Below are positions 1,199-52,626 of a DNA stretch of 64,000 bases, one piece after another. Numbering within the stretch: the stretch's first letter is position 1; each line of letters begins with the position of its first letter. A program made the position numbers and the translations under genes. Under the pieces are notes generated by a model. The model was not told where the DNA came from, ran no database searches, and was given only the letters and a program-made list of their open reading frames with translations. The stretch is from the IMG/VR virus record IMGVR_UViG_3300001528_000407, positions 23,339 to 87,338 of that record; one strand, written 5' to 3'. Origin of the DNA: a virus (taxonomy: Duplodnaviria > Caudoviricetes).

Positions 1199-1330
1199 TC
1201 AATCAAAACTCTCCACAAGAAAAACATTTTCTTGCCAAGCGTTAATCGTTATCGTAGGACAAAGGCTTGTCTTTAGAAACAAACCTTTGTTCTGCCCTCT
1301 TGGGTATTGGAAGAAGAAATGTCTTTTTAT
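1199..1330 (-). CDS. C5-MTase TRD-like module Tb, lacking its own ATG (ATA at the coupled position)
   Basis: (I)KRHFFFQYPRGQNKGLFLKTSLCPTITINAWQENVFLVESFD*; PTIT motif and hydrophobic-E C-terminus as in the 41.7-44.8 kb modules; the junction reads CTATAAAAA where other modules have ATGA. Confidence 0.55.
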   Translation of the reverse strand: MKRHFFFQYPRGQNKGLFLKTSLCPTITINAWQENVFLVESFD

Positions 1331-1490
1331 AGTTCCACCAATATCTTTGGCTCTATTCCACCCCCCCACATGTATGGCAAGCGGGAGCGATGCCTTGGGG
1401 ACTGAATACCCTGCGGCAAGACTCAAAACGCTTGTCATAGGGAGGGGTGTCTATAGAGCCTAAGACGATGGTGTGGATATTCTTATTCAT
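1327..1490 (-). pseudogene. C5-MTase TRD-like mini-gene Ta, poly-G OFF allele
   Basis: ATG overlaps the stop of 1483-2376; G7 (C7 at 1361-1367) gives ...CHTCGGVE*; G8 gives MNKNIHTIVLGSIDTPPYDKRFESCRRVFSPQGIAPACHTCGGGGIEPKILVEL* (54 aa). Confidence 0.75.
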
Positions 1491-2376
1491 CATCGCCATG
1501 GTTCTCGTCGGGATTCTCGTCACGGTTCTCTTCCTGTGCTGACTGCTCGTCGTGATTTTCTTCCTCGTTCCAATCAAGCGTCTTCACCAGGAAGGAGATA
1601 CCCTTGCCAAACTCTTTTTCCTCGTAACCACGATGCAAGTACCATTTCAAGACCCATTCCTCTGCCTCTCGGATATTCCACTCCAGGGCTACCGTCTTGC
1701 AACCTTGCTCCTTGGCGTTGCGCTCGGCTACTTCCAGTAGTCTTGTGGCGATATGACGGTTGCGGTAGGCTCCATTCACCCAAAGGGCATAGATGAAGGC
1801 ATCGCACTTCTGCCAGAAATCATCCTTCTTGCGCTCGTCCTCAGTAGGAATATCAAGATGCACATTGCCCACTACCACACCATCGTGGATGGCATTGGCG
1901 AGGTATCGGGTGCATTTGAACCATTTCTGAATATTCGTGGTGATACTGAAAGAGAAGGACGTGATACGTACCTGAATGCCTTCGCCGTGGGTTTCATCGC
2001 CTTTATCATCGGCTGGCTTGTTGTCGCCATTACCGTTGCCTTTTTCGTCCTTGCCATTATCAGGGTTGCCATTGGCTGCTGCATCAGATGCAAGCATATC
2101 GTAATCCACACCGAGTTCCTTGGCTCTCATGCGAAGATCCTTTTCCCTTGCCCATCGCATCATGCAGGAGAATATCCAGATGGCTACGACAAAACTAACC
2201 ACCACATGACTCACTGCTTGCTTGCCTACGGTGAAGAAGAGCTGCGATAGCTCATCGGGGTGGCAGACATCGAACGTCCATTGCAGCAGGGCATTGAACG
2301 CTAACATCAGGATGAGGGTTACGAGTATGGGCATCGAATAGATGCCCAATCGCTTCAAAAATCTCTTTGCTTTCAT
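1483..2376 (-). CDS. membrane-anchored GNAT-family acetyltransferase
   Basis: Two N-terminal hydrophobic segments; C-terminal LWVNGAYRNRHIATRLL (acetyl-CoA binding motif A) and WYLHRGY (motif B). Confidence 0.7.
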   Translation of the reverse strand: MKAKRFLKRLGIYSMPILVTLILMLAFNALLQWTFDVCHPDELSQLFFTVGKQAVSHVVVSFVVAIWIFSCMMRWAREKDLRMRAKELGVDYDMLASDAAANGNPDNGKDEKGNGNGDNKPADDKGDETHGEGIQVRITSFSFSITTNIQKWFKCTRYLANAIHDGVVVGNVHLDIPTEDERKKDDFWQKCDAFIYALWVNGAYRNRHIATRLLEVAERNAKEQGCKTVALEWNIREAEEWVLKWYLHRGYEEKEFGKGISFLVKTLDWNEEENHDEQSAQEENRDENPDENHGDDE

Positions 2377-4410: not shown

Positions 4411-5595
4411 TTATCTATTAGGATCTACCGTGATGTTGTATTTCGCCAAGACTGGCACAAGTCCGGTCATTACTCCCCTGCCAAGGAGAGGCACTGAGTC
4501 GAGCGCACTGCGAGGTATCACCTTCTTCTTAGGCAACTGCTCTTTGCTGGCTTCCTCATCGAGAAGCTTCTTGCAAGCTGCCAACTCCTTGTCGGCATCG
4601 TCTCGCTCGTCGAGGGCTTTCTTGTATTTGGCATTCAGTTCATCATATTGCTTCTGTGCCTCCCTCGCCTCGGCTCTCTGCTTGGCGATGAAGTCGGAAG
4701 CCTTCTGCGCCGTGGCTTGATAATCCTGTAGCTTCGCACTTAGCTCGTCGATTTGCGTTTGCAGGTTTGTAACTACCGTTTGGTGATCCGCCTGAGCGTC
4801 CGACATCTGTTGCATGTGCAGGATATTGAGGTTCTCGATTTCCTTCTGCTGGTCATTGATTTTCTTACGCAATACATCGCTGTCCGCCGCTGTGACGATA
4901 TAATTGCCCAAGCGGTTGATGTTCTGCGAGAGGATGGCAAAGAGACCCTCGGTCTCGCTCTCCAAGGACAGGGCATCATCGGCGGTGAGGATATAGCTAT
5001 CATCGTTCCACCAATCGGGGCGAGTGATATTCAGCTTGCCCGATGGCTGCTGTGCAGCTCGGTTGCTGGCTTGCATATCTGGGGTATTGGCTTGCGTATT
5101 GCTACCCGTACTACCTCCATTCGTTTGTACCTCTTGGTTCTTATCCTGGGCATTCTGCTCCTCGGCGTTATCCATATCCTTCACCACGTCGATAGCGGAA
5201 GGCATATCACCCAACTTATCGTAGTAGTTATCCTCACGGGCATCCAGGGCAAGTCTGCCCTCATAGACATCCCAAAGGTTGTTGTCGATGAGATAGTAGA
5301 TAGCCCCAAGCACGATGTGCGCTCCATATTGGTCGATATACTCGTTAATCGGCGCAACCCATCGCTTGCGCACCACCATATCCAGCCACTCCTTATATAC
5401 CTTGCCATTGAGCATGTTTTTATCCTCTTCCTTCTGATAACAGGAGGCGATACGAGGGATAACGTAGAGCGGTTCGGTCTTCTGCAAGAAGTTCTCGTAG
5501 TTGATGCCGAGAGCCATGCGCACCATGTTGCTCACGTTCTTAAATTGATATTTCTTCAGCAAGGAGCGAAGAACGTTTTGTTGCTTTGTATTCAT
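4411..5595 (-). CDS. coiled-coil protein
   Basis: 394 aa; heptad-rich C-terminal half (LRKKINDQQKEIENL...). Confidence 0.7.
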   Translation of the reverse strand: MNTKQQNVLRSLLKKYQFKNVSNMVRMALGINYENFLQKTEPLYVIPRIASCYQKEEDKNMLNGKVYKEWLDMVVRKRWVAPINEYIDQYGAHIVLGAIYYLIDNNLWDVYEGRLALDAREDNYYDKLGDMPSAIDVVKDMDNAEEQNAQDKNQEVQTNGGSTGSNTQANTPDMQASNRAAQQPSGKLNITRPDWWNDDSYILTADDALSLESETEGLFAILSQNINRLGNYIVTAADSDVLRKKINDQQKEIENLNILHMQQMSDAQADHQTVVTNLQTQIDELSAKLQDYQATAQKASDFIAKQRAEAREAQKQYDELNAKYKKALDERDDADKELAACKKLLDEEASKEQLPKKKVIPRSALDSVPLLGRGVMTGLVPVLAKYNITVDPNR

Positions 5596-26933: not shown

Positions 26934-27787
26934 ATGGTAAGCGAACAATTACAGCGCAAGATAGACCGAGCTATTCACCTGCTGCAAAGCGTGGCTAAGG
27001 GATATGATGGCGAGATAGAGGTAGCCTATTCGGGTGGCAAGGATAGCGATGTTATCTTGCAGCTCGCTAAAGAAGCTGATATTCGATATAGGGCTATCTA
27101 CAAGAATACAACCATCGACCCGCCTGGCACAATAAAACATGTGCAGGATATGGGTGCCGAGATATTGCGACCTAAGCAGACGTTCTTTCAGCTTTTGGCG
27201 AAGAGAGGCTTTCCCTCCCGATTTAGTCGATTCTGTTGTGCTGAATTGAAAGAATACAAGGTATTGGATAAAGCTATTGTTGGTATTCGCCGATGCGAGA
27301 GCGATAAGCGAGCCGAACGTTACAAAGAGCCTACTCTTTGCCGATACTACGGTGCCAAGCGAGAGGAAAATCATGTGGAGCAAATCTTGCCTATCTTGGA
27401 TTGGAGCGATGATGATGTCTTGCAGTTTATCGAAGACCGTAAGATAACGCTTGCACCGATATACTACAATTCTGGGGGGGGGTAATCGACGTTACTCAAC
27501 GTTTGGGCTGTATGTGCTGCCCACTTGCCACAGAGCGCAAGCGTATTCTCTACTTCAAGAAATATCCCAAGATGGTGAAAGCCTATCTTCGGGCTGGCAT
27601 GAAATTCAGAGCCTCGCATCCTGATAGTTATTGTGTCGCCCATTACGATGATGTTTACGAATGGTTCACCCGTGATGTATTCTACCCAAGAAAGAAAGAT
27701 TGGGATAGAGTGAGCGGTGGGCTTTTCGAGAAGCCAGACTATAAGGCTTTCTTGGAAAAAGAATTTGGCATAGATTTGACGCTATGA
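26934..27787 (+). pseudogene. PAPS-reductase-family protein split by a G9 tract (probable phase-variable OFF allele)
   Basis: YSGGKDS, RFCCAELKE, GIRRCES and PILDW in frame 1; TCT GGG GGG GGG TAA at 27471-27485; G7 or G10 continues as VIDVTQRLGCMCCPLA. Confidence 0.85.
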
Positions 27788-29005: not shown

Positions 29006-29776
29006 ATGATAGAACTGAATAAGATATATAATGAGGATTGCTTGGAGGGTATGAAACGCATACCCGATGCAAGCGTGGATTGCATTATTTGCGATTTGCC
29101 TTACGAGGTACTAAATCGTAGTAACAAGCATGTGCAGTGGGATAAGGTTATTCCGATGCAACCGCTCTGGGAGCAATACCTACGTATCGCAAAGCCGAAT
29201 GCAGCTATCATTCTCTTCGGACAGGGCATGTTTACCGCACAACTCATGATGAGCCAGCCCGATATTTGGCGATACAATATCACTTGGGATAAAGACCGAA
29301 AGACTGGTTTTCTGAATGCAAAGCAGATGCCTTTGCGACAGACGGAAATCATTTCGGTGTTTTATCGTGAGCAACCAGTTTATCATCCGCAAATGCGAAA
29401 GTGTTCTAAGCATGAGCGCAATCATAGCAGAGGCAGACAGCAGGGAAAACAAACTAATAGATGTTACGGTTCCTTCGGCAAAGCTGAAGACTTGATTACT
29501 GATGAGAAATATCCATCAGACCTTATCACATTCCAAAGAAACGTACACGATAGTTGGCATCCTACGCAGAAGCCTCTTGACCTTATCCGCTATCTCGTTC
29601 GTACCTACACCGATGTGGGGGGGTGCATTCTTGACAACTGCATGGGCAGCGGCACTACCGCCATCGCTTGTATCAAAGAGAAGCGCAACTTTATGGGCTT
29701 CGAGTTGAACAAGGAATATTACGACAAGGCTTGTGAGCGCATCAAATTAGAAATGATGCAGCCCACACTATTCTAA
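29006..29776 (+). CDS. beta-class N4/N6 DNA methyltransferase with an in-frame G7 tract
   Basis: DLPY (motif IV), HPTQKP and DNCMGSGTT (motif I); G7 at 29617-29623 just before motif I. Confidence 0.9.
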   Translation: MIELNKIYNEDCLEGMKRIPDASVDCIICDLPYEVLNRSNKHVQWDKVIPMQPLWEQYLRIAKPNAAIILFGQGMFTAQLMMSQPDIWRYNITWDKDRKTGFLNAKQMPLRQTEIISVFYREQPVYHPQMRKCSKHERNHSRGRQQGKQTNRCYGSFGKAEDLITDEKYPSDLITFQRNVHDSWHPTQKPLDLIRYLVRTYTDVGGCILDNCMGSGTTAIACIKEKRNFMGFELNKEYYDKACERIKLEMMQPTLF

Positions 29777-33998: not shown

Positions 33999-34597
33999 AT
34001 GAGTAAAGATTGGACGGGCGGTAGAGCCGCTGTATTCAAGACGCTTGGAGCGAGCAACCACAAAAATGGCGAGCGACAGCGTGAGGACTACTATGCCACG
34101 GAGCCTGCGGCTACCGAATGGCTATGCAAGATTGAGGATTTCGGGGGGGTAAAATCTTAGAGCCTTCCTGTGGAGAGGGACATATCAGCAAGGTTCTTTT
34201 GAAGCATGGGTATGATGTTACGAGCCGAGACTTGATAGACAGAGGATTTGGCGAGGGCGGTCAAGATTTCCTTGCCATTGATAACTTGTCATGGCAGGGG
34301 CATATCGTCACCAACCCTCCCTACAAGTATGCGCAAGAGTTTGTGGAGAAGGCATTGCAGATTATTCCGCCAGGATATAAGGTGGCTATGCTGCTAAAGC
34401 TGACGTTTCTTGAAGGAAAGGCTCGTAGGTATTTATTCAATACACAGCCACCTGTTAGGGTATGGGTGAGTTCTTCGAGACTGAAATGTGCGATGAATGG
34501 TGATTTCGATGCAACCGAGGGTAGCGCACAGGCTTATGCTTGGTTCGTATGGGAGAAAGGATATAAGGGAGACACCATCGTGAAATGGTTCAACTGA
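33999..34597 (+). pseudogene. small N6-adenine DNA methyltransferase frameshifted at a G7 tract (probable OFF allele)
   Basis: MSKDW...DYYATEP...DFGGVKS* with G7 at 34143-34149; G8 gives FGGGKILEPSCGEGHIS (motif I) joined to IVTNPPY (motif IV). Confidence 0.85.
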
Positions 34598-34856: not shown

Positions 34857-34954
34857 TTAGTTTTAACCTTATAAACTACTATAGAACTTTTGGAATTTGT
34901 TCTGATTATGAATAATGAAAAATAGAATTTTATCTTATCATTTATCTATTGCAT

Positions 34955-35268
34955 CTATAATTCCACAAACACGCATAGCTGCTGCCCATTGCTCGTAAGG
35001 GCATTGGCAAGCCTACCCCCCCGATTGTGCGGCTTCGCCTTATCGCCGAGGTGGGGTAAGCGAGGTCACACACACCAAGCACAGGGCAATCGGTGTAGCC
35101 TTGCTCCGTGGCTTGGCGTATGCGCAAGAAGGTATCGCCCGTCTCTACCTCGTTCACCAACTGGAGAAAAGGTCGGGAGGTGTCGTATATTCTATATAAT
35201 GTGCCATCGGGATAGAAGCCATATAGCTTGCCATCCTTCACGATGGTGCCTCGCTTGTAGTGTGACAT
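34955..35268 (-). pseudogene. C5-MTase TRD-like gene T11, poly-G OFF allele
   Basis: IRQATEQGY...CDLAYPTSAIRRSRTIGG; G7 (C7 at 35016-35022); G8 gives GGGRLANALTSNGQQLCVFVEL*. Confidence 0.7.
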
Positions 35269-41716: not shown

Positions 41717-41888
41717 TCACTCAAACTCGCAAATCACGTAGGGCGATGTAACGCCCATATCGTACTCATCTTTGTACGACCGCCCCCCCGAAAAATGAGG
41801 TTACGGCATTGGCGATTTGCTTTATCGGGCGGGAGGTTGCCTTGCCTGTCTTGTCACGGCTCCAGCCGATGTAATACTTCTTATTCAT
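41717..41888 (-). pseudogene. TRD-like mini-gene T10, OFF (G7; G6 or G9 is ON)
   Basis: ON: MNKKYYIGWSRDKTGKATSRPIKQIANAVTSFFGGRSYKDEYDMGVTSPYVICEFE*; C7 at 41783-41789. Confidence 0.75.
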
Positions 41889-42054
41889 AGGCCAACAGTA
41901 CTAAGTTGTCTTTACCTACGGACGTAAGGGTGTTACTTATACCCTCCCCATTTATCTCAAACCGCTGCTCCGAACGACCTTTCACCGAATGTTTACGGTC
42001 GGAAGGATTAAGAGGGTCTCGCCCTCTCGACGCAGCTATGAAAACTCCATACAT
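41881..42054 (-). CDS. TRD-like mini-gene T9, intact
   Basis: MYGVFIAASRGRDPLNPSDRKHSVKGRSEQRFEINGEGISNTLTSVGKDNLVLLAYE* (57 aa); interrupted GGGGAGGG. Confidence 0.8.
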   Translation of the reverse strand: MYGVFIAASRGRDPLNPSDRKHSVKGRSEQRFEINGEGISNTLTSVGKDNLVLLAYE

Positions 42055-42222
42055 AGTAAATTATCTTTCGTCACAGTAGAAATCGTGTTGCTCCACGGCT
42101 CACGGCTCATCCTGTGATATTTATCTTGATACTTGCACCCCCCCCGTATCTCCGTGAATGCGGCGAAAGGATTTCGCTTCTTCCGTCCGATAGTGGGTAA
42201 GGATGGCTCTCTGTTCACTCAT
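42036..42222 (-). pseudogene. TRD-like mini-gene T8, OFF (G8; G7 is ON)
   Basis: ON: MSEQRAILTHYRTEEAKSFRRIHGDTGGCKYQDKYHRMSREPWSNTISTVTKDNLLCMEFS*; C8 at 42138-42145. Confidence 0.8.
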
Positions 42223-42364
42223 AACTCAATAGTATCATTGTATGCTGACCGTGGTTGTCGTAGAGACCTCCCCAGCCATCGTATCGGGAAGAGAGTGCCG
42301 TGGAGTACCTCCCCCGAAAACTTATCGTGTCGCCTCGCTTCACAAAAGGTCTTACTTTATTCAT
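42215..42364 (-). CDS. TRD-like mini-gene T7, intact
   Basis: MNKVRPFVKRGDTISFRGRYSTALSSRYDGWGGLYDNHGQHTMILLSYE* (49 aa); interrupted GGGGGAGG. Confidence 0.7.
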   Translation of the reverse strand: MNKVRPFVKRGDTISFRGRYSTALSSRYDGWGGLYDNHGQHTMILLSYE

Positions 42365-42505
42365 ACGCTATCAATATTGCTATTGCCTTAATCAAAAAGT
42401 TGGTATCAGGCAAGATATTCGACACACCATCTTTATAATAATGGGATGAAATCGTACCACATACCCCCCTATATTTGGAGTATTGAGAAACCTCTTATCA
42501 ATCAT
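42357..42505 (-). pseudogene. TRD-like mini-gene T6, OFF (G6; G7 is ON)
   Basis: ON: MIDKRFLNTPNIGGVCGTISSHYYKDGVSNILPDTNFLIKAIAILIAYE*; C6 at 42464-42469. Confidence 0.75.
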
Positions 42506-42652
42506 ACTCTATCAATATCTTAGGCTTGTCTGTATCATGCCCTTTACCCCCCCAGATATACAGAGGGCGATACCTTTTGGCGATACTACCACCCCATTCT
42601 GCGATGGGGAATAGTAACCAAGAATAATCGGGCGATTTACTGTTTGTCTCAT
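42498..42652 (-). pseudogene. TRD-like mini-gene T5, OFF (G7; G8 is ON)
   Basis: ON: MRQTVNRPIILGYYSPSQNGVVVSPKGIALCISGGGKGHDTDKPKILIEYD*; C7 at 42547-42553. Confidence 0.8.
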
Positions 42653-42821
42653 AACTCAATCATCACATAGTGCATGTTGCGCTGGCTAATACCCGAAAGA
42701 ATGGTGCCACAGCACCCCCCCGAATTGCTACCTTATTATAGGCATCCAGCCACTCGCATTTATCACGAGGGCGATAACCTATGGCAAACATCTGCTCTAT
42801 GTTTTTGTTCTTTTTGTTCAT
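42649..42821 (-). pseudogene. TRD-like mini-gene T4, OFF (G7; G8 is ON)
   Basis: ON: MNKKNKNIEQMFAIGYRPRDKCEWLDAYNKVAIRGGCCGTILSGISQRNMHYVMIEL*; C7 at 42715-42721. Confidence 0.75.
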
Positions 42822-43007
42822 TCGTATTCATACATTACAACCGTCATTGGATAATGGGCGAGCGAGAGGATATTGGTAGGCCCGATATTCTCATATCTCG
42901 TGGTGATAGTCGCCGCACAATTATCGCTTGTTACATTTATCGGTCGTCGAGTACCCCCCCCTATAATTCAAGCAAGGTATGCCGACGTTTGTCAGTCTGA
43001 ATTTCAT
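42818..43007 (-). pseudogene. TRD-like mini-gene T3, OFF (G8; G7 is ON)
   Basis: ON: MKFRLTNVGIPCLNYRGGTRRPINVTSDNCAATITTRYENIGPTNILSLAHYPMTVVMYEYE*; C8 at 42954-42961; ATG overlaps the MTase TGA. Confidence 0.75.
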
Positions 43008-44407
43008 TTCTTATCAGAAGGTTTTCTATTCAGATTCTCCAAATACTTTTCCTCGAACCCTGGATATTCACTCGGCAAAGTACCGTCCTGCTTCCACGAT
43101 GAATAATCATAGGTAAACTTCCCGATAATCATTTTCTCGCAAATGAGCTTATCCAGTTCGGTAGGCTTCATCTTCCACCCATCAACCTCTTCCATCCAAT
43201 ACGTGAGCCAAGTCTTCAAGAACATGGCATCCTCATGCTTGGGTGGCAAATCGAAAGTTACGAACAATGCGCTGTCCTTGTCGTTCGCCTTGAGAAACTT
43301 TGCCACGGCATTGTCTTTGAGGAAGTACTTTTCATCCACCTCCTCTTCCAACACATCCTCCAACTTCCTTTCGAGCTTCACAGGCTTAGGAAACTGATAG
43401 TCGAAAGCCACGTCTTTTCTCATCGAGAGGCAGAAAACTCGATCTCGATTCTGAGGCACACCGTAGTCCTTGGCATTCAGTCGTGCCCATCGGTTCACGT
43501 AGCCAAGTTCTTCCAACCGTTTGAGCCACTTCTTGAAATCGGGCATAAACTTCTCGCTTACCAGTGCCGCCACATTCTCTTGCAGGAGATATTTAGGTTT
43601 CAATACCTCGATGGCATCGGCTACCTTCCAAAGCAAGGCACTTCGGGTGTCGCTACCCTCTTGCAACCCCATCTGCTTACCAGCCTGACTAATGTCCTGG
43701 CAAGGTGATGAGTAAGTGAAAAGGTCAACCTCTCTGCCTTGCAAACTCTCCTTCACCTTCTGCCAGTCTATCTTGGTAATATCGCCGAGTGCTCGGTGAG
43801 CGAACTGAGGGAAGACGAGGTTGTGCATTTGGCAAGCATATTTGTCGATGTCGCTCCAGCCATAGCAGGTGTATTTGAAATCGGGGTGTTCCTCTCGTAA
43901 GGCATCGGCTGCCATCAACTGACTGTCATAGCCGCTGAAGGTAGTGATAATGACTTTCTCCTCGGGTACCACCTTATCCTCATCGCTGATAACGATATTC
44001 TCATCATGCGGATTCTTCTCCACTGGCATCGACGGCAATACGTCTTCGGGGAAGAAATCATCGAAGAGCGAGGCTTGTGCCTTTGGCTGCACAGGTGCAG
44101 GGTACCAAATCTGCTCATATATCTTCTTCAACACATCTACCACGATACTGTTGCCGGCTTGCTTGTATTGTTGGCTGGCGGATATGAGCATATCATCGTC
44201 CTTGCCTTTCAGCTTGCCGAATATCTTGCTGAACATTTCCTTGCCAAATGCGCTCGATATGCGAGTCTTGGCGAGGGAGATTGTACTTTGCATCAAGAGG
44301 ATGATTCCGTCTCTGACACCCATCAGGCGAAAACACTCCTTGGGTGTGAGCTTGCGGATGGCATAGCTCTTAATGCTCTGGTCTTTGAAATTTATCTTCG
44401 TTATCAT
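43004..44407 (-). CDS. circularly permuted DNA (cytosine-5)-methyltransferase core lacking a TRD
   Basis: N-terminal IRKLTPKECFRLMG (IX) and YKQAGNSIVVDVL (X), then TFSGYDS (I), SSPCQDIS (IV), LQENV (VI) and YGVPQNRDRVF (VIII). Confidence 0.9.
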   Translation of the reverse strand: MITKINFKDQSIKSYAIRKLTPKECFRLMGVRDGIILLMQSTISLAKTRISSAFGKEMFSKIFGKLKGKDDDMLISASQQYKQAGNSIVVDVLKKIYEQIWYPAPVQPKAQASLFDDFFPEDVLPSMPVEKNPHDENIVISDEDKVVPEEKVIITTFSGYDSQLMAADALREEHPDFKYTCYGWSDIDKYACQMHNLVFPQFAHRALGDITKIDWQKVKESLQGREVDLFTYSSPCQDISQAGKQMGLQEGSDTRSALLWKVADAIEVLKPKYLLQENVAALVSEKFMPDFKKWLKRLEELGYVNRWARLNAKDYGVPQNRDRVFCLSMRKDVAFDYQFPKPVKLERKLEDVLEEEVDEKYFLKDNAVAKFLKANDKDSALFVTFDLPPKHEDAMFLKTWLTYWMEEVDGWKMKPTELDKLICEKMIIGKFTYDYSSWKQDGTLPSEYPGFEEKYLENLNRKPSDKK

Positions 44408-44443
44408 TGTCTGTTGTTGTTTTACTTACGTTTTATCAATACC

Positions 44444-44597
44444 CTATTCATACATGAGAAGTACACCCGCATCCAATACGTTAGCTTTAACGCACCTTCC
44501 TAAATTCCACAATGGCCCATTATTAAACATGGCTGACGATTGCGTCATTACCCCCCCCGATTTTCGGGACATGATAATCTATCTTAATCTTACTCAT
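44444..44597 (-). pseudogene. TRD-like mini-gene T2, OFF (G8; G7 is ON)
   Basis: ON: MSKIKIDYHVPKIGGVMTQSSAMFNNGPLWNLGRCVKANVLDAGVLLMYE*; C8 at 44551-44558. Confidence 0.7.
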
Positions 44598-44772
44598 ACA
44601 CGATTGCTATTACTGGTGTCTGCCCACCGCCCAACCCCATTGCCGAGGTAAGCGTGAAGCAAATATCCCTCAAAGAGCAAAAGGTGTTTAACCCATGTGC
44701 TTGCATATTGCCGAACACGGAAGTAGTCTCTATTTTTTTTACTATGATGGCTATCGCCTCTGCTCTAATCAT
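44590..44772 (-). CDS. TRD-like mini-gene T1, intact
   Basis: MIRAEAIAIIVKKIETTSVFGNMQAHGLNTFCSLRDICFTLTSAMGLGGGQTPVIAIVYE* (60 aa); Gly run encoded by mixed codons. Confidence 0.8.
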   Translation of the reverse strand: MIRAEAIAIIVKKIETTSVFGNMQAHGLNTFCSLRDICFTLTSAMGLGGGQTPVIAIVYE

Positions 44773-44799: not shown

Positions 44800-44892
44800 T
44801 GCAGGGAGAGGGAATCGAACCCCCGACCATCGGCTACCCGAATCTACATCGCCATTCTGCCGACACTCTAACCAGCTGAGTAGTACCCCTGC
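44800..44892 (-). tRNA. tRNA-like element with a 24-nt anticodon loop (intron-containing or pseudo-tRNA; isotype undetermined)
   Basis: Acceptor GCAGGGG/TCCCTGC-A; D arm ACTC-AGCTGGTTA-GAGT; anticodon stem TCGGC/GCCGA; T arm GGGGG-TTCGATT-CCCTC; no encoded CCA. Confidence 0.65.
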
Positions 44893-48218: not shown

Positions 48219-51200
48219 TCAGAACGGCAAATCACTCTTATCTATCTGCGATACCATTTCGGCACCCGTACCAGGAGCGTTGCCATTTCCGCTGTTTATC
48301 CTCCTGCCTTGCTTACGAAGTTTGTTGTTCTGCCAGCGTTCCTCCTCTTCAGGAGTAAGCGTAACGATGTCACCGTTCTCATCACGATATGGCAGAGGGT
48401 CCGGTCGCTCGGCATATTCATGGGCGATACGTTTCAACTCCTCGTAGCTGCCAGGAACCTCGTCCTTGCCCGAACGATAGAAGAAGAACACATGTTTCGA
48501 GGTTTTCATATAACGAATATACTTCGGCTCGATGGTGTTGTCGTTCTCCCACTCCCTGCCAACGAAATATTCTTGCGTTACCCAGGCTTTCAACTTGAAG
48601 CACCTGCGCTGCTTGTCACCCGCATTCTCGAAGAGGTGAGGAGGGTTGCAGATGATGCCCACATTCTCGCAGTAATCATAGATCTTCTTCTTGAACGTGG
48701 CACGGCTATACTCCTTGCTCTTGCCCTCGCTGGCATCTGCCCAATCTCGCATGAACTCATTGAACATATCATCCGTGCAGATAGGAACGGAAAATACCTC
48801 GTTGCGTGAGAAGAACCACTCGAAGTATCTCACGATGCTCTCCGTAAGTTTCTGTACCATCTGACGACGGCGAACGTTCTGCTGAGGAGCGATGGCAAAC
48901 GTATGGTACCGCATGATGAATTGCACTGCCAAGGCACATATATATATGGTCTTGTTTCTGTCTGCCGGACTCAAATCCTCGGGCTCTGGCTTGAAGCCTT
49001 TCATCACGTCGCTCGGTGAGCGAGGTGGCTTGCGCTTCTGCTGGTTGTCTCTCGCAAATCTATCCGAGAAACTAACCAATGGAAATCTACCTACCGTACT
49101 GTCATCATCATCGCTCAATGGCGAGTTGCTGGTGATAACGTGCATCGGCGACTCCTTTCTATCCAGAGTAACAGGGTCGCCAAACTTTCGCTCCACATCG
49201 GTGCCCGAAGTAACGAAGTTGTAAAAGTACTTCAGTGGAAAGCTCTTCGGCTTATCCTCCCAATGTATCACCCGATACTTGCCAGGGTCTTGGATGATAG
49301 GCGTAAGCGAAAACTTAGCATCGTTGATGGTGAGAAATTTCTTCATGTTCACGTTCAATACGTTCACAGCCGAACCTACCACCAGCTTTATCATCACAGA
49401 CTTGCCTGAGCCACCGCTTGCCTCCTTTTCGTTCTCGATAGTATCTTCGAGGAGATAAGGACAAATAGGCTGCATCCCTTCCCAGGAGCGACAGCAAAGG
49501 CGACCGATGCAGCTTATCATGTTCACAAAGTGAGAGTTGATAACTGCCATCTGGTCTTCCGTGAGTTCCTGCTTGCTTCTTAACGCTTCTTCCTCTACCT
49601 GCCAAAGCACGTTTGAGCAACCACGTATCACTCGCAAGATACCCCACATATCCCTTTCTCGGTTTTCCTTCCAATGCACGCTCCAGTGATGCAGTTGCGC
49701 CCACTCTTGCAGCTCTGCCCTCATCTGCTTAATCTCGCCATAAGAATAGACCGGCGAACCATCCTCGTTGCGCATAGCGTCTTTGTCGTCGATGGCTTGC
49801 AAGCGTTGCTTGTAGGCTTCGCTCTCGGTGATAACGAAAGGTGCATCGGGGAACCGCTGCATCGTGAAATCATATTCTTTTCTTGCCGAAGCAGGGATAA
49901 AGAAGTTGATTCTATCATAGTTCACGGCTGATATAGTATCAGGCGTGATTTTCAATGCCACATTGTTGAAATAGAACCATTCCGTGTTATCATTGTAACC
50001 TTCGGAAAAATCTATTGTTAGTGGATGCAAACTACCCGCCGAAGACATCGTAAAAGTCTTATCCACGAGGTTGGCACTATCCTCCATCAACTTTCGTTCC
50101 TGGTCTGAATATCTCAAGCCCAACTCCTTGATGTATTTCAAGAGGAGATTCTTCACCTCCTGAATGATGGATTTCTCGTCGATATAATGCACGAAGCATT
50201 TTTCGAGATAGATGAATTTGCCCACCTTATCGGTGGAATTGGGGTCCACCATACGATAATATCCGTTGCAGGTCATATAGAGCCAAACTTTCGTAGGCGA
50301 TACCTTGCATACAGGTGGCTTGGGCTTTCCGCTACGTGGGTCGCGTGGATATTCCAGGTTGAACGGATTGACATCGGTTGCCGTCCTCAATATCGAATAG
50401 AGAGGCATACGAATGTCGTGGTCGTACATGAAATTGTCGGTCTCCGTCATACGGTAGGTTATCATGTAGTCTCTCACCGAACGAGGCGAACAACCATACA
50501 GCCACTGCCAACGCTGGCTAAACTTCCATTTAAAACCATCGGGCAACATGGCATAACACAGCGTATTATATTTCACGCAGATGGCTCCACAATCCCTTTG
50601 ACTCGCAATATCATTAGGGTAAAGCATGATAACCCTCTCGGCAAATCGCTTCATCTTCTGATACTGCACGGCGTTGAAGTCCAGTTTTTCCTGCCTCCAC
50701 TGTCCGTGGTCGATATACCAAAAGTTTCTCCTACCGATGGAGAAAGCCACATGATACCAACAATATTTCTGGAAATGATTATCCGAAAACTTATCACTCC
50801 TCAAGGAACGCATGGCATAATATACGCTCAGTGCATCTTCGGGCGTGCGACAGAACACGATATTTTGCGCCTTGATGTCGCCTGCGTCGATGTTCTTCTG
50901 CTCGGAATGGAATGTGCCTTTCGGCTCTCCGTCCTTGGTCTCGTTCTCCACCCATATTTCTTCCTGCTCGGTGTATTGCTCGTAAGGGTCGAATTGTTCG
51001 ATGGCAGATTTTACCGCCGTCGATTTCTCGCTACGATGATCCATGGCATAGGTGAAAACCTTGTCGCCCATGAGCCACTTACTCACTTTCCTCACCGTAT
51101 GCTCTTCGTTGGTGCTGAAGACAATCGGATCTTGCTGCATCGCAGGACGGAAGAAGCAACCGCATGAGCCTTGTGGGGCTATCACGTCGGTGGCAAAGCA

Positions 51201-51914
51201 TACAAACAGTGGATTCCAGGGTGTGCCATAAATCACCTCGCTCACCAACTGCCCTTGTCGCATTACGTTAGGTAGAGTAACCTTATCCACCGCATAGATG
51301 CGGAAATCGTTGTTGAGCATGGGTGTATCGAAATCCTTGCCAAACCCGAAGTGTGGTAAGCCCTGCTGAAGAGTGACCTCGCACCCCAAGGCTGCAAGCT
51401 CTTGGGGATTGAAGTCAGTCTTAGGCAAAAATGAGAAAGTCTCTATCGTTTGTGGGGCAATCGTTCGATAATCCATCTTGGCGAAGAGCATAGGCCACTT
51501 GGCTCTTACCTCTTCCTTGTCGCCATACACTCGCACCACAAGGTCGTGGCAAAGGCGAAGCAAACTCGCTCCGTGCATCGGCAAGTTGCGCATGGCAGCA
51601 TAAAGTTCCAGGGCTCCATACCCAGACTTACCCGTCTGCGTACACATCCACCGGATAGCACCGTGCGATGCTGCCTTTTCTTGATCCGTCACGCCTACAC
51701 CATTGTATAATCCTCCTCGCTGGTTCTTGTAGATGATGAAATGAGGAGTCTGTTTAGTGTGGGCATCATCCGATGCACCATCATCAGCCACCTTCTTCTG
51801 ACAGAAAGGACAGAAGCAGGCTATCTGATTCTCTATGTGTTGCTCCTCGGCTGGCTTCACAAGGAAAGTCAAGTCGATGTTGGCGAGCTGGTTGATAATC
51901 GGATGATATAACAT
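48219..51914 (-). CDS. DNA primase-helicase
   Basis: N-terminal CFCPFC Zn finger, TOPRIM-like PEDAL...YPND, SF3-like Walker A SGGSGKS and IHWED; ends in DLPF. Confidence 0.75.
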   Translation of the reverse strand: MLYHPIINQLANIDLTFLVKPAEEQHIENQIACFCPFCQKKVADDGASDDAHTKQTPHFIIYKNQRGGLYNGVGVTDQEKAASHGAIRWMCTQTGKSGYGALELYAAMRNLPMHGASLLRLCHDLVVRVYGDKEEVRAKWPMLFAKMDYRTIAPQTIETFSFLPKTDFNPQELAALGCEVTLQQGLPHFGFGKDFDTPMLNNDFRIYAVDKVTLPNVMRQGQLVSEVIYGTPWNPLFVCFATDVIAPQGSCGCFFRPAMQQDPIVFSTNEEHTVRKVSKWLMGDKVFTYAMDHRSEKSTAVKSAIEQFDPYEQYTEQEEIWVENETKDGEPKGTFHSEQKNIDAGDIKAQNIVFCRTPEDALSVYYAMRSLRSDKFSDNHFQKYCWYHVAFSIGRRNFWYIDHGQWRQEKLDFNAVQYQKMKRFAERVIMLYPNDIASQRDCGAICVKYNTLCYAMLPDGFKWKFSQRWQWLYGCSPRSVRDYMITYRMTETDNFMYDHDIRMPLYSILRTATDVNPFNLEYPRDPRSGKPKPPVCKVSPTKVWLYMTCNGYYRMVDPNSTDKVGKFIYLEKCFVHYIDEKSIIQEVKNLLLKYIKELGLRYSDQERKLMEDSANLVDKTFTMSSAGSLHPLTIDFSEGYNDNTEWFYFNNVALKITPDTISAVNYDRINFFIPASARKEYDFTMQRFPDAPFVITESEAYKQRLQAIDDKDAMRNEDGSPVYSYGEIKQMRAELQEWAQLHHWSVHWKENRERDMWGILRVIRGCSNVLWQVEEEALRSKQELTEDQMAVINSHFVNMISCIGRLCCRSWEGMQPICPYLLEDTIENEKEASGGSGKSVMIKLVVGSAVNVLNVNMKKFLTINDAKFSLTPIIQDPGKYRVIHWEDKPKSFPLKYFYNFVTSGTDVERKFGDPVTLDRKESPMHVITSNSPLSDDDDSTVGRFPLVSFSDRFARDNQQKRKPPRSPSDVMKGFKPEPEDLSPADRNKTIYICALAVQFIMRYHTFAIAPQQNVRRRQMVQKLTESIVRYFEWFFSRNEVFSVPICTDDMFNEFMRDWADASEGKSKEYSRATFKKKIYDYCENVGIICNPPHLFENAGDKQRRCFKLKAWVTQEYFVGREWENDNTIEPKYIRYMKTSKHVFFFYRSGKDEVPGSYEELKRIAHEYAERPDPLPYRDENGDIVTLTPEEEERWQNNKLRKQGRRINSGNGNAPGTGAEMVSQIDKSDLPF

Positions 51915-51942: not shown

Positions 51943-52221
51943 GACGAAAGATAGACCCACCGAGATAGGCGAGGCCAAACTTCAAGTGTTCTCCACCAAG
52001 CCATTTCGCAGTGTTACAAGCCCTTCGCTCTGTGCTCCCGAAGCCCACAAATTCGGGGGGGGTACTGGGTGTGGTCGGAGCTTTAAATCTGTAAAGACTC
52101 AGCTCCCCTCCCCGATTGCGTCCATTAAAGCACAGTGCTTTGATGGGCACAGCTTGATGTCGTTAGGAACGAATGCAGAGGCGTTTCCGCTACTCTTCGC
52201 CTTTCGGGGGTCTATATCGTC
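51943..52221 (-). ncRNA. candidate structured non-coding RNA (about 280 nt)
   Basis: Long closing stem GACGA.TAGACCC...GGGTCTA.TCGTC, GCG-GAAA-CGC and C-TTCG-G loops, several internal hairpins; intergenic upstream of the primase gene. Confidence 0.5.
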
Positions 52222-52626
52222 AATATCGTAATGTTCTACTTTCTAAGTTCTCTCTCCGCAACCTTTCGGATTTTCCTAATAGTTGGAAGAAGAAAGAAGA
52301 CCTTTGGCGACGCTGCCAAATTTCAAGAGACTGACCGCTACCTTTTGATACCGCAGCATTCCTACGCTCTTCATCAGCCGAAGCTGACTTATTTCCTCGC
52401 CTTTGGAGAAAGGGTAGAAAAGAAAGTTCCCAGGCTTTTTATCAGACGATTGCCCGTATCGTTTTGTAGCGGCGGTTACACGTTCTTGCGAGGTGTTGCC
52501 ATTCCCCGCCATCGCCGCAGGTCTTCTTGTTTGTCTAAAAATAAAAGTTCAAGTGTGCATATCGCATACCTATCGTATATCTAATCTCGCTAGATTATTC
52601 TAACTTTAGAGAGATTGTGAAGGCAA

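Follow-up and report, generated by a model that had tools for sequence, protein, structure and literature searches.

Poly-G tracts as probable contingency switches in an array of specificity mini-genes beside a split phage C5-cytosine methyltransferase

In bacteria, phase-variable methyltransferases are a paradigm; for phages, the description of contingency loci has only recently begun. In the methyltransferase contingency loci of bacterial restriction-modification systems (the phasevarions of Haemophilus, Neisseria and Helicobacter and the poly-G loci of Campylobacter), gain or loss of one unit in a coding homopolymer toggles the methylation function, and the tract length differs among otherwise identical genomes. 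A locus that appears to be alike in both respects is described here from a virus of the Caudoviricetes. The analysed stretch of DNA, in the following called the window, has a length of 64,000 nt and covers positions 23339-87338 of one contig of 87,338 bp (IMG/VR record IMGVR_UViG_3300001528_000407). From position 44772 to 41717 its minus strand carries ten short open reading frames (ORFs), designated M1 to M10 and 49-65 aa long when read through, together with one 467-aa gene for a C5-cytosine methyltransferase (MTase). In contrast to the bacterial phasevarions, the putative switches belong to a phage and lie on small detachable specificity subunits instead of the catalytic mod gene, one catalytic core is shared by many independent switches, and the function is likely restriction evasion and not gene regulation. 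Since an anti-restriction role is more likely for a phage than the control of a regulon, the label phasevarion is not applied to the locus.

The Trautner laboratory reportedly characterized multispecific C5-methyltransferases of the Bacillus phages SPR, phi3T and rho11s, in which one core serves several target-recognition domains (TRDs). The present locus likewise appears to combine one core with several TRDs, an arrangement that would protect against several restriction systems. The TRDs of SPR-type enzymes are fused in tandem and constitutive, whereas those proposed here would be separate mini-proteins, each with a mutational switch; each module forms an ORF of its own, from start to stop codon, and is not a tandem part of a single polypeptide. 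Natural permuted C5-methyltransferases of "type H" (M.BssHII, M.Alw26I and M.Esp3I) and the naturally split M.AquI have been described, and fragments of split C5-methyltransferases complement each other (PMC5944983). Type H enzymes retain an N-terminally fused TRD and M.AquI consists of two fixed subunits, whereas here the TRD alone seems to be detached and multiplied into a switchable library. In phages, simple sequence repeats (SSRs) of T2 and T4 act as contingency loci, among them a poly-A SSR in the T2 gene agt, which is responsible for DNA glucosylation and whose switching trades off two host defences (bioRxiv 10.1101/2025.10.21.683753). According to passages of the same preprint, Fletchervirus possesses poly-G tracts in receptor-binding proteins (Sorensen et al. 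2021 cited there), and a poly-G tract is mentioned for the methylase gene of Bordetella phage BPP-1. T2 agt and the Fletchervirus loci resemble the present one as phage homopolymers with reversible frameshifts, and T2 agt also modifies phage DNA. In those cases one or two tracts lie in a single gene, whereas here an array of seven tracts (at least 11 in the genome) would gate alternative specificities of one enzyme and give combinatorial states. The literature search yielded no account of arrays of TRD mini-genes or of phage TRDs gated by poly-G, and none of the compared known systems unites detachable TRD subunits with a separate switch for every subunit.

We consider it likely that the G runs serve as slipped-strand contingency switches and that the units switched are detachable specificity subunits of a split C5-methyltransferase. 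Slipped-strand mispairing during phage DNA replication would add or remove one G and thereby shift a mini-gene of 49-65 aa between a full-length (ON) and a truncated (OFF) product. The full-length product would provide the TRD that the neighbouring permuted C5-cytosine methyltransferase core is lacking, and its C-terminal strand, a hydrophobic stretch followed by [YF]-[ED], is predicted to dock on the N-terminal strand of the core just before motif IX. As every tract of the array is located 15-44 codons upstream of the docking strand, an OFF product would be unable to dock and should be a clean null. Modules in which the Gly-Gly(-Gly) codons are synonymously interrupted would be fixed ON. Each of the other modules has its own tract, so that a phage population could hold many combinations of active specificities, with every module presumably giving its own methylation motif. 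Switching may hedge between nucleases cutting unmethylated DNA and modification-dependent nucleases cutting methylated DNA, for which the poly-A contingency locus of T2 agt offers a precedent, and the competition of many TRDs for one core may render an all-ON state inefficient and favour states with few modules ON. In this way the modules would alter the methylome and may pre-adapt progeny to new restriction systems.

The frame states of the array were scored with a frame-junction script and by three-frame translation. The G runs of the coding strand appear on the plus strand as C-runs starting at 41783 (7 nt), 42138 (8 nt), 42464 (6 nt), 42547 (7 nt), 42715 (7 nt), 42954 (8 nt) and 44551 (8 nt). 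Each of them forms the junction between an upstream frame, whose ATG overlaps or abuts the preceding stop codon, and a downstream frame reaching the shared terminus; a change of one unit in these coding homopolymers toggles between a full-length and a truncated product, as is characteristic of SSR contingency loci. An earlier sequence-only reading had reported seven G6-G8 runs here, all of them out of frame and each restorable by a single base (+1 in three modules, -1 in four), and its run positions and lengths, out-of-frame states and directions were confirmed. Removal of one G restores M2 (44444..44597; G8 at 44551-44558), M3 (42818..43007, with a start ATG overlapping the stop codon of the MTase gene; G8 at 42954-42961) and M8 (42036..42222; G8 at 42138-42145), which are in frame as G7, and M10 (41717..41888; G7 at 41783-41789), which is in frame as G6. 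One additional G restores M4 (42649..42821; G7 at 42715-42721) and M5 (42498..42652; G7 at 42547-42553), both in frame as G8, with the restored tract of M5 encoding Gly-Gly-Gly, and M6 (42357..42505; G6 at 42464-42469), which is in frame as G7. The hydrophobic-E terminus that had been assigned to all restored peptides was found for M2, M3, M6 and M10, but M4 ends in ..IEL, M5 in ..EYD and M8 in ..EFS. The three intact modules, M1 (44590..44772, 60 aa), M7 (42215..42364, 49 aa) and M9 (41881..42054, 57 aa), hold interrupted G-rich segments at the equivalent place, as had also been noticed before. The tract reads GGGGGAGG in M7 and GGGGAGGG in M9, and M1, whose segment is likewise locked in frame, follows the pattern T-L...GGG...hydrophobic-YE and has in-frame orthologues in relatives. 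Directly upstream of M1, a tRNA was matched by Rfam at 44800-44892 on the minus strand with 41.5 bits (gathering score 29). ARAGORN called no tRNA over the window, including this position, and with its length of 93 nt the putative tRNA may hold an insertion or intron.

The accumulation of G runs in the array was compared with an analytic first-order Markov expectation. About 16 G/C runs of at least 6 nt are expected in the 87-kb genome, corresponding to about 0.5 per 2.9 kb, and 7 were observed in the array, all on one strand; for runs of at least 7 nt, 3.5 are expected across the genome and 13 were observed. GGG is the least used Gly codon in the large ORFs (8%), and only one of 74 Gly-Gly dicodons is GGGGGG, which argues against the pure G tracts being a by-product of codon usage.

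The MTase gene (43004..44407, minus strand) matches PF00145 (E = 3.5e-53), and its motifs are arranged in a circularly permuted order with IX-X first, followed by I-VIII. In the alignment to M.MpeI, core residues 15-55 correspond to M.MpeI 333-373 (the region of motif IX) and core residues 213-362 to M.MpeI 112-274, and the approximately 58 residues separating motif VIII from motif IX, i.e. the TRD, have no counterpart in the core. This gap has the size of a mini-gene. The mini-proteins bear the usual TRD signatures, e.g. RGR...Q.E...SNTLTS..KDN in M9, and their C-terminus is a hydrophobic strand with [YF]-[ED] behind it. When the core was modelled as a complex with M9, the score was 0.78, compared to 0.10 for the best of three controls; 58 of 80 solved complexes and 2 of 110 mismatched pairs attained this mark, rough counts for which the analysis relied on its own alignments. 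The model runs share at least 79% of their contacts, the pLDDT (predicted local distance difference test) of the partner is at least 51, and residues 50-57 of M9 pair with residues 13-20 of the core. The model therefore supports docking of a TRD mini-protein onto the core. In one subclade of relatives (L025, L032, L034, L037, L039 and 17 other loci), a G7 run is located inside the core MTase gene itself at about position 4588 (or 4088) and is in frame in 22 of 22 cases. Moreover, two adjacent annotated methyltransferase genes of Bastille-like Bacillus phages in GenBank (BCP01, Deep Blue, PK16 and others) match core residues 16-341, and split or permuted C5-methyltransferases may also exist in cultured phages.

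Relatives of the MTase were found in viral contigs (246) and in metagenome contigs (367), and 160 loci were fetched for comparison. The contigs related to the window phage stem from human gut metagenomes, and no contig encoding the exact window MTase was found in the contig search. Megablast of the region against GenBank phages gave no match, and a protein search against the same phages returned only MTases with less than 60% identity, all of them distant. Near the MTase gene of the relatives, 224 coding-strand G runs of at least 6 nt were counted as compared to 20 C runs, with lengths peaking at 7-8. A set of 135 unique mini-gene-like G tracts from 80 related viral contigs comprises 44 tracts that are in frame, 53 that would be restored by +1 and 38 by -1, with a few tracts mis-assigned (e.g. 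the M3-like tract of the closest clade) because the script takes the longest downstream frame; 72% of random positions in the same regions are in frame.

A comparison of tract lengths across isolates or time points had been proposed as a check in the sequence-only reading, and among near-identical relatives it was found that G tracts vary and A/T tracts do not. In independent near-identical pairs, which differ by 255 substitutions in 79,980 nt (0.3%), the length differs in 12 of 29 G tracts and in 0 of 56 A/T tracts. L040 and L042 are free of substitutions over 9,335 bp and differ by two indels, each of them located in a G tract; between L024 and L083 there are 14 mismatches and two gaps, which again lie in G tracts. 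When only tracts with identical 25-nt flanks were considered, 19 of 38 G tracts were polymorphic in length as compared to 7 of 99 A/T tracts (p = 8e-8), and the contrast was repeated in metagenome contigs (20 of 31 G tracts, 2 of 35 A/T tracts). Judged from these alignments, no other character changes nearly as fast among near-identical relatives as tract length, and the repeats mutate far faster than the sequence surrounding them, as in known contingency loci.

The closest clade comprises five genomes with a mutual identity of about 99% and an MTase that is 86% identical to that of the window. Four distinct ON/OFF combinations occur among these five genomes. The orthologue of M5 has G7 (OFF) in L001 and L082 and G8 (ON) in L024, L081 and L083, and the M2-like module has G6 (OFF) in L024 and G7 (ON) in L081, L082 and L083. 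The tract orthologous to that of M3 is G6 or G10, and the orthologues of M8 have G8 or G6, the two lengths that flank the in-frame G7, and are all OFF. As far as can be read from these genomes, tract states vary independently of one another, and an orthologous tract is ON in one genome and OFF in another. This agrees with the independent toggling of specificities that had been postulated for the array; of the postulated seven switches with 2^7 states, the independent variation of the tracts was borne out, but the number of states is to be taken as an upper bound.

The modules with interrupted tracts provide a natural control. The M5 family shares one Gly-Gly-Gly, for which some members use a pure G run and others synonymously interrupted codons, e.g. 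GGGGGAGG or GGAGGTGG. According to a length-between-anchors test on unique sequences of this family, 8 of 19 pure tracts are in frame (11 OFF), as compared to 57 of 61 interrupted ones (4 OFF), and most of the four interrupted OFF tracts still hold G6. The idea that intact modules are locked ON is supported by this difference. In some relatives (L064, L062) the M7 orthologues are split at the position of the interrupted tract, and M9 orthologues hold a pure G8 in frame in L006 and a G9, split, in L068. In the alignment of the M9 family, residues 36-38, i.e. the tract position, are the most variable (GEG, GGG, VGG, VLG, AGG, WGS and others), which would be the pattern expected from repeated interruption and re-creation of the G run.

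Outside of the array, further G tracts of the window appear to fall in DNA-modification genes as well. In a remote pair of TRD-like mini-genes (1199..1493, minus strand), the first member is broken by a G7 (C-run 1361-1367) that needs +1 to reach a frame with a TRD-like motif and a ..VEL terminus. At a third TRD-like locus (34942..35268, minus strand), +1 in a G7 (C-run 35016-35022) reaches an ..ANALTS.. motif and a ..VEL terminus. The gene at 34000..34597 (plus strand) breaks off after some 50 codons at a G7 (34143-34149), and +1 joins the frame with the S-adenosylmethionine (SAM)-binding-like motif EPSCGEGH, by which it is tentatively classified as SAM-methyltransferase-like; its downstream piece had no Pfam match. 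The PAPS-reductase-domain gene (26934..27784, plus strand) matches PF01507 with its upstream piece (E = 3.4e-13), needs +1 in a G9 at 27474-27482 and has a ..GCMCCP.. motif in the downstream frame; it may be a further switched DNA-modification gene. In the N6/N4 DNA methylase gene (29006..29776, plus strand; PF01555, E = 8.5e-29), a G7 at 29617-29623 is in frame. Furthermore, a G8 run is present at 52055-52062 on the plus strand between the divergent genes 48219-51914 (minus strand) and 52231-52584 (plus strand) with no clear ORF across it, and this run may be a promoter-spacing tract or functionless. A PHROGs search gave nearly no annotation for the large genes neighbouring the array.

Several points weigh against the interpretation of the tracts as contingency switches. 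The variation in tract length was seen between genomes, from which heterogeneity and reversibility within one phage population would be extrapolated. All seven array tracts and four of the five other tracts in TRD-like or DNA-modification genes are OFF, which fits an expectation of one third ON just marginally (about 5%). The one third of tracts being ON among the relatives is also what neutral length drift would give; accordingly, the description of the modules as "OFF by default" fits the seven array tracts of the window, but across relatives (44 of 135 ON) the OFF fraction is just the neutral expectation of two thirds. The complex model of core and M9 resembles intramolecular contacts of solved single-chain C5-methyltransferases, and because the same contact is internal in these enzymes, its high score may mirror likeness to solved structures instead of binding.

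The neutral ON fraction would also be obtained if the Gly-Gly-Gly runs were slippery by chance and dispensable modules drifted without any benefit from bet-hedging, and the replacement of the tract by interrupted codons in many relatives would be in line with such drift. We regard purely non-adaptive hypermutability as unlikely, since the pure tracts repeatedly use the rarest Gly codon and recur in many diverged modules as well as in other DNA-modification genes of the genome. In addition, the excess of coding-strand G runs over C runs near the MTase gene, with its peak at 7-8, is far above expectation, and the modules are still under purifying selection, as detailed in the following.

The codon comparison covers M8 and M5, as the orthologues of M3 and M2 differ by indels or are too diverged. 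Between the window and the closest clade, 9 synonymous differences as compared to 4 non-synonymous ones were counted in the untranslated downstream M8 frame, which corresponds to a proportion of synonymous differences (pS) of 0.52 and of non-synonymous differences (pN) of 0.049, i.e. a pN/pS of about 0.09, and a similar ratio (about 0.1) was obtained for M5. By this measure the downstream frame of either module evolves under purifying selection, and M8 would therefore be expressed often enough for selection to act. This is difficult to reconcile with the modules being decaying pseudogenes, i.e. dead remnants with the G runs as the places where they first broke, even though the seven tract-bearing modules are all OFF here and M8 is OFF throughout the six compared genomes, the window and its five closest relatives. 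The OFF modules carry no extra lesions and have retained the canonical [YF][ED] terminus as frequently (64 of 91) as the ON modules (32 of 44; p = 0.84), the same tracts are ON in sister genomes, and pure G tracts were kept although GGG is a disfavoured codon. Decay is thus considered very improbable. As in contingency loci, OFF alleles are otherwise intact, the locus is under selection and both ON and OFF states exist at the same orthologous tract.

A similarly low probability is given to constitutive recoding, by which ribosomal frameshifting or transcriptional slippage would yield a full-length product from out-of-frame DNA, so that the state of the DNA would not be a switch. A G run would allow tRNA-Gly to re-pair in either shifted frame, and low-level leakage is possible on sequence grounds. 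Programmed sites, however, have a fixed length and direction, whereas the orthologous tracts need +1, 0 or -1; one third of the tracts are already in frame, and most family members are interrupted, non-slippery and in frame. Because neither length nor direction of the tracts is conserved, slippage on the G run is not expected to be the main route to full-length product. A programmed ribosomal frameshift site was considered as a class of its own and rejected, with orthologous tracts occurring in all three frame states and with lengths of 6-10.

Finally, sequencing or assembly errors at homopolymers, with all true tracts being in frame, might be suspected because of the 12 G tracts scored in modification-related genes of the window, seven array tracts and five others, 11 are out of frame and some platforms are error-prone at long G runs, but this explanation is hardly credible, given that corrections in both directions would be needed, that the A/T runs of at least 7 nt inside large ORFs of the genome are all in frame, that this also holds for the G/C runs of the protease-like and N6/N4 methylase genes, and that about two thirds of tracts are likewise out of frame in the assemblies of relatives, which are short-read assemblies according to their SPAdes-style contig names and do not seem to mis-size such runs at random, as the G7 of the core MTase gene is in frame at 22 of 22 subclade loci. 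Two outcomes had been named beforehand as contradicting a switch, namely assembly homopolymer error and fixed out-of-frame decay with added lesions, and neither was encountered in the sequence comparisons that served as proxies.

Taken with the further G-gated modification genes (PAPS-reductase-like and other methyltransferases), the TRD-less core and the poly-G-gated specificity mini-proteins may represent a programmable epigenetic bet-hedging of a widespread human-gut phage lineage, a wider claim to which we give a little better than even chances. Because the specificity subunits, and not the enzyme, would be switched separately, a single phage genotype could generate combinatorial methylation patterns. 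If the bet-hedging interpretation is true, every burst would contain differently modified virions facing methylation-sensitive as well as methylation-dependent nucleases. It would explain how abundant gut phages cope with the restriction systems of gut bacteria, which are very diverse and phase-variable in their turn, and the modules would constitute a natural toolkit of plug-in specificities for C5-methyltransferases. For the annotation of phage genomes, frameshifted mini-ORFs beside phage methylases would then have to be regarded as functional states and not as junk.

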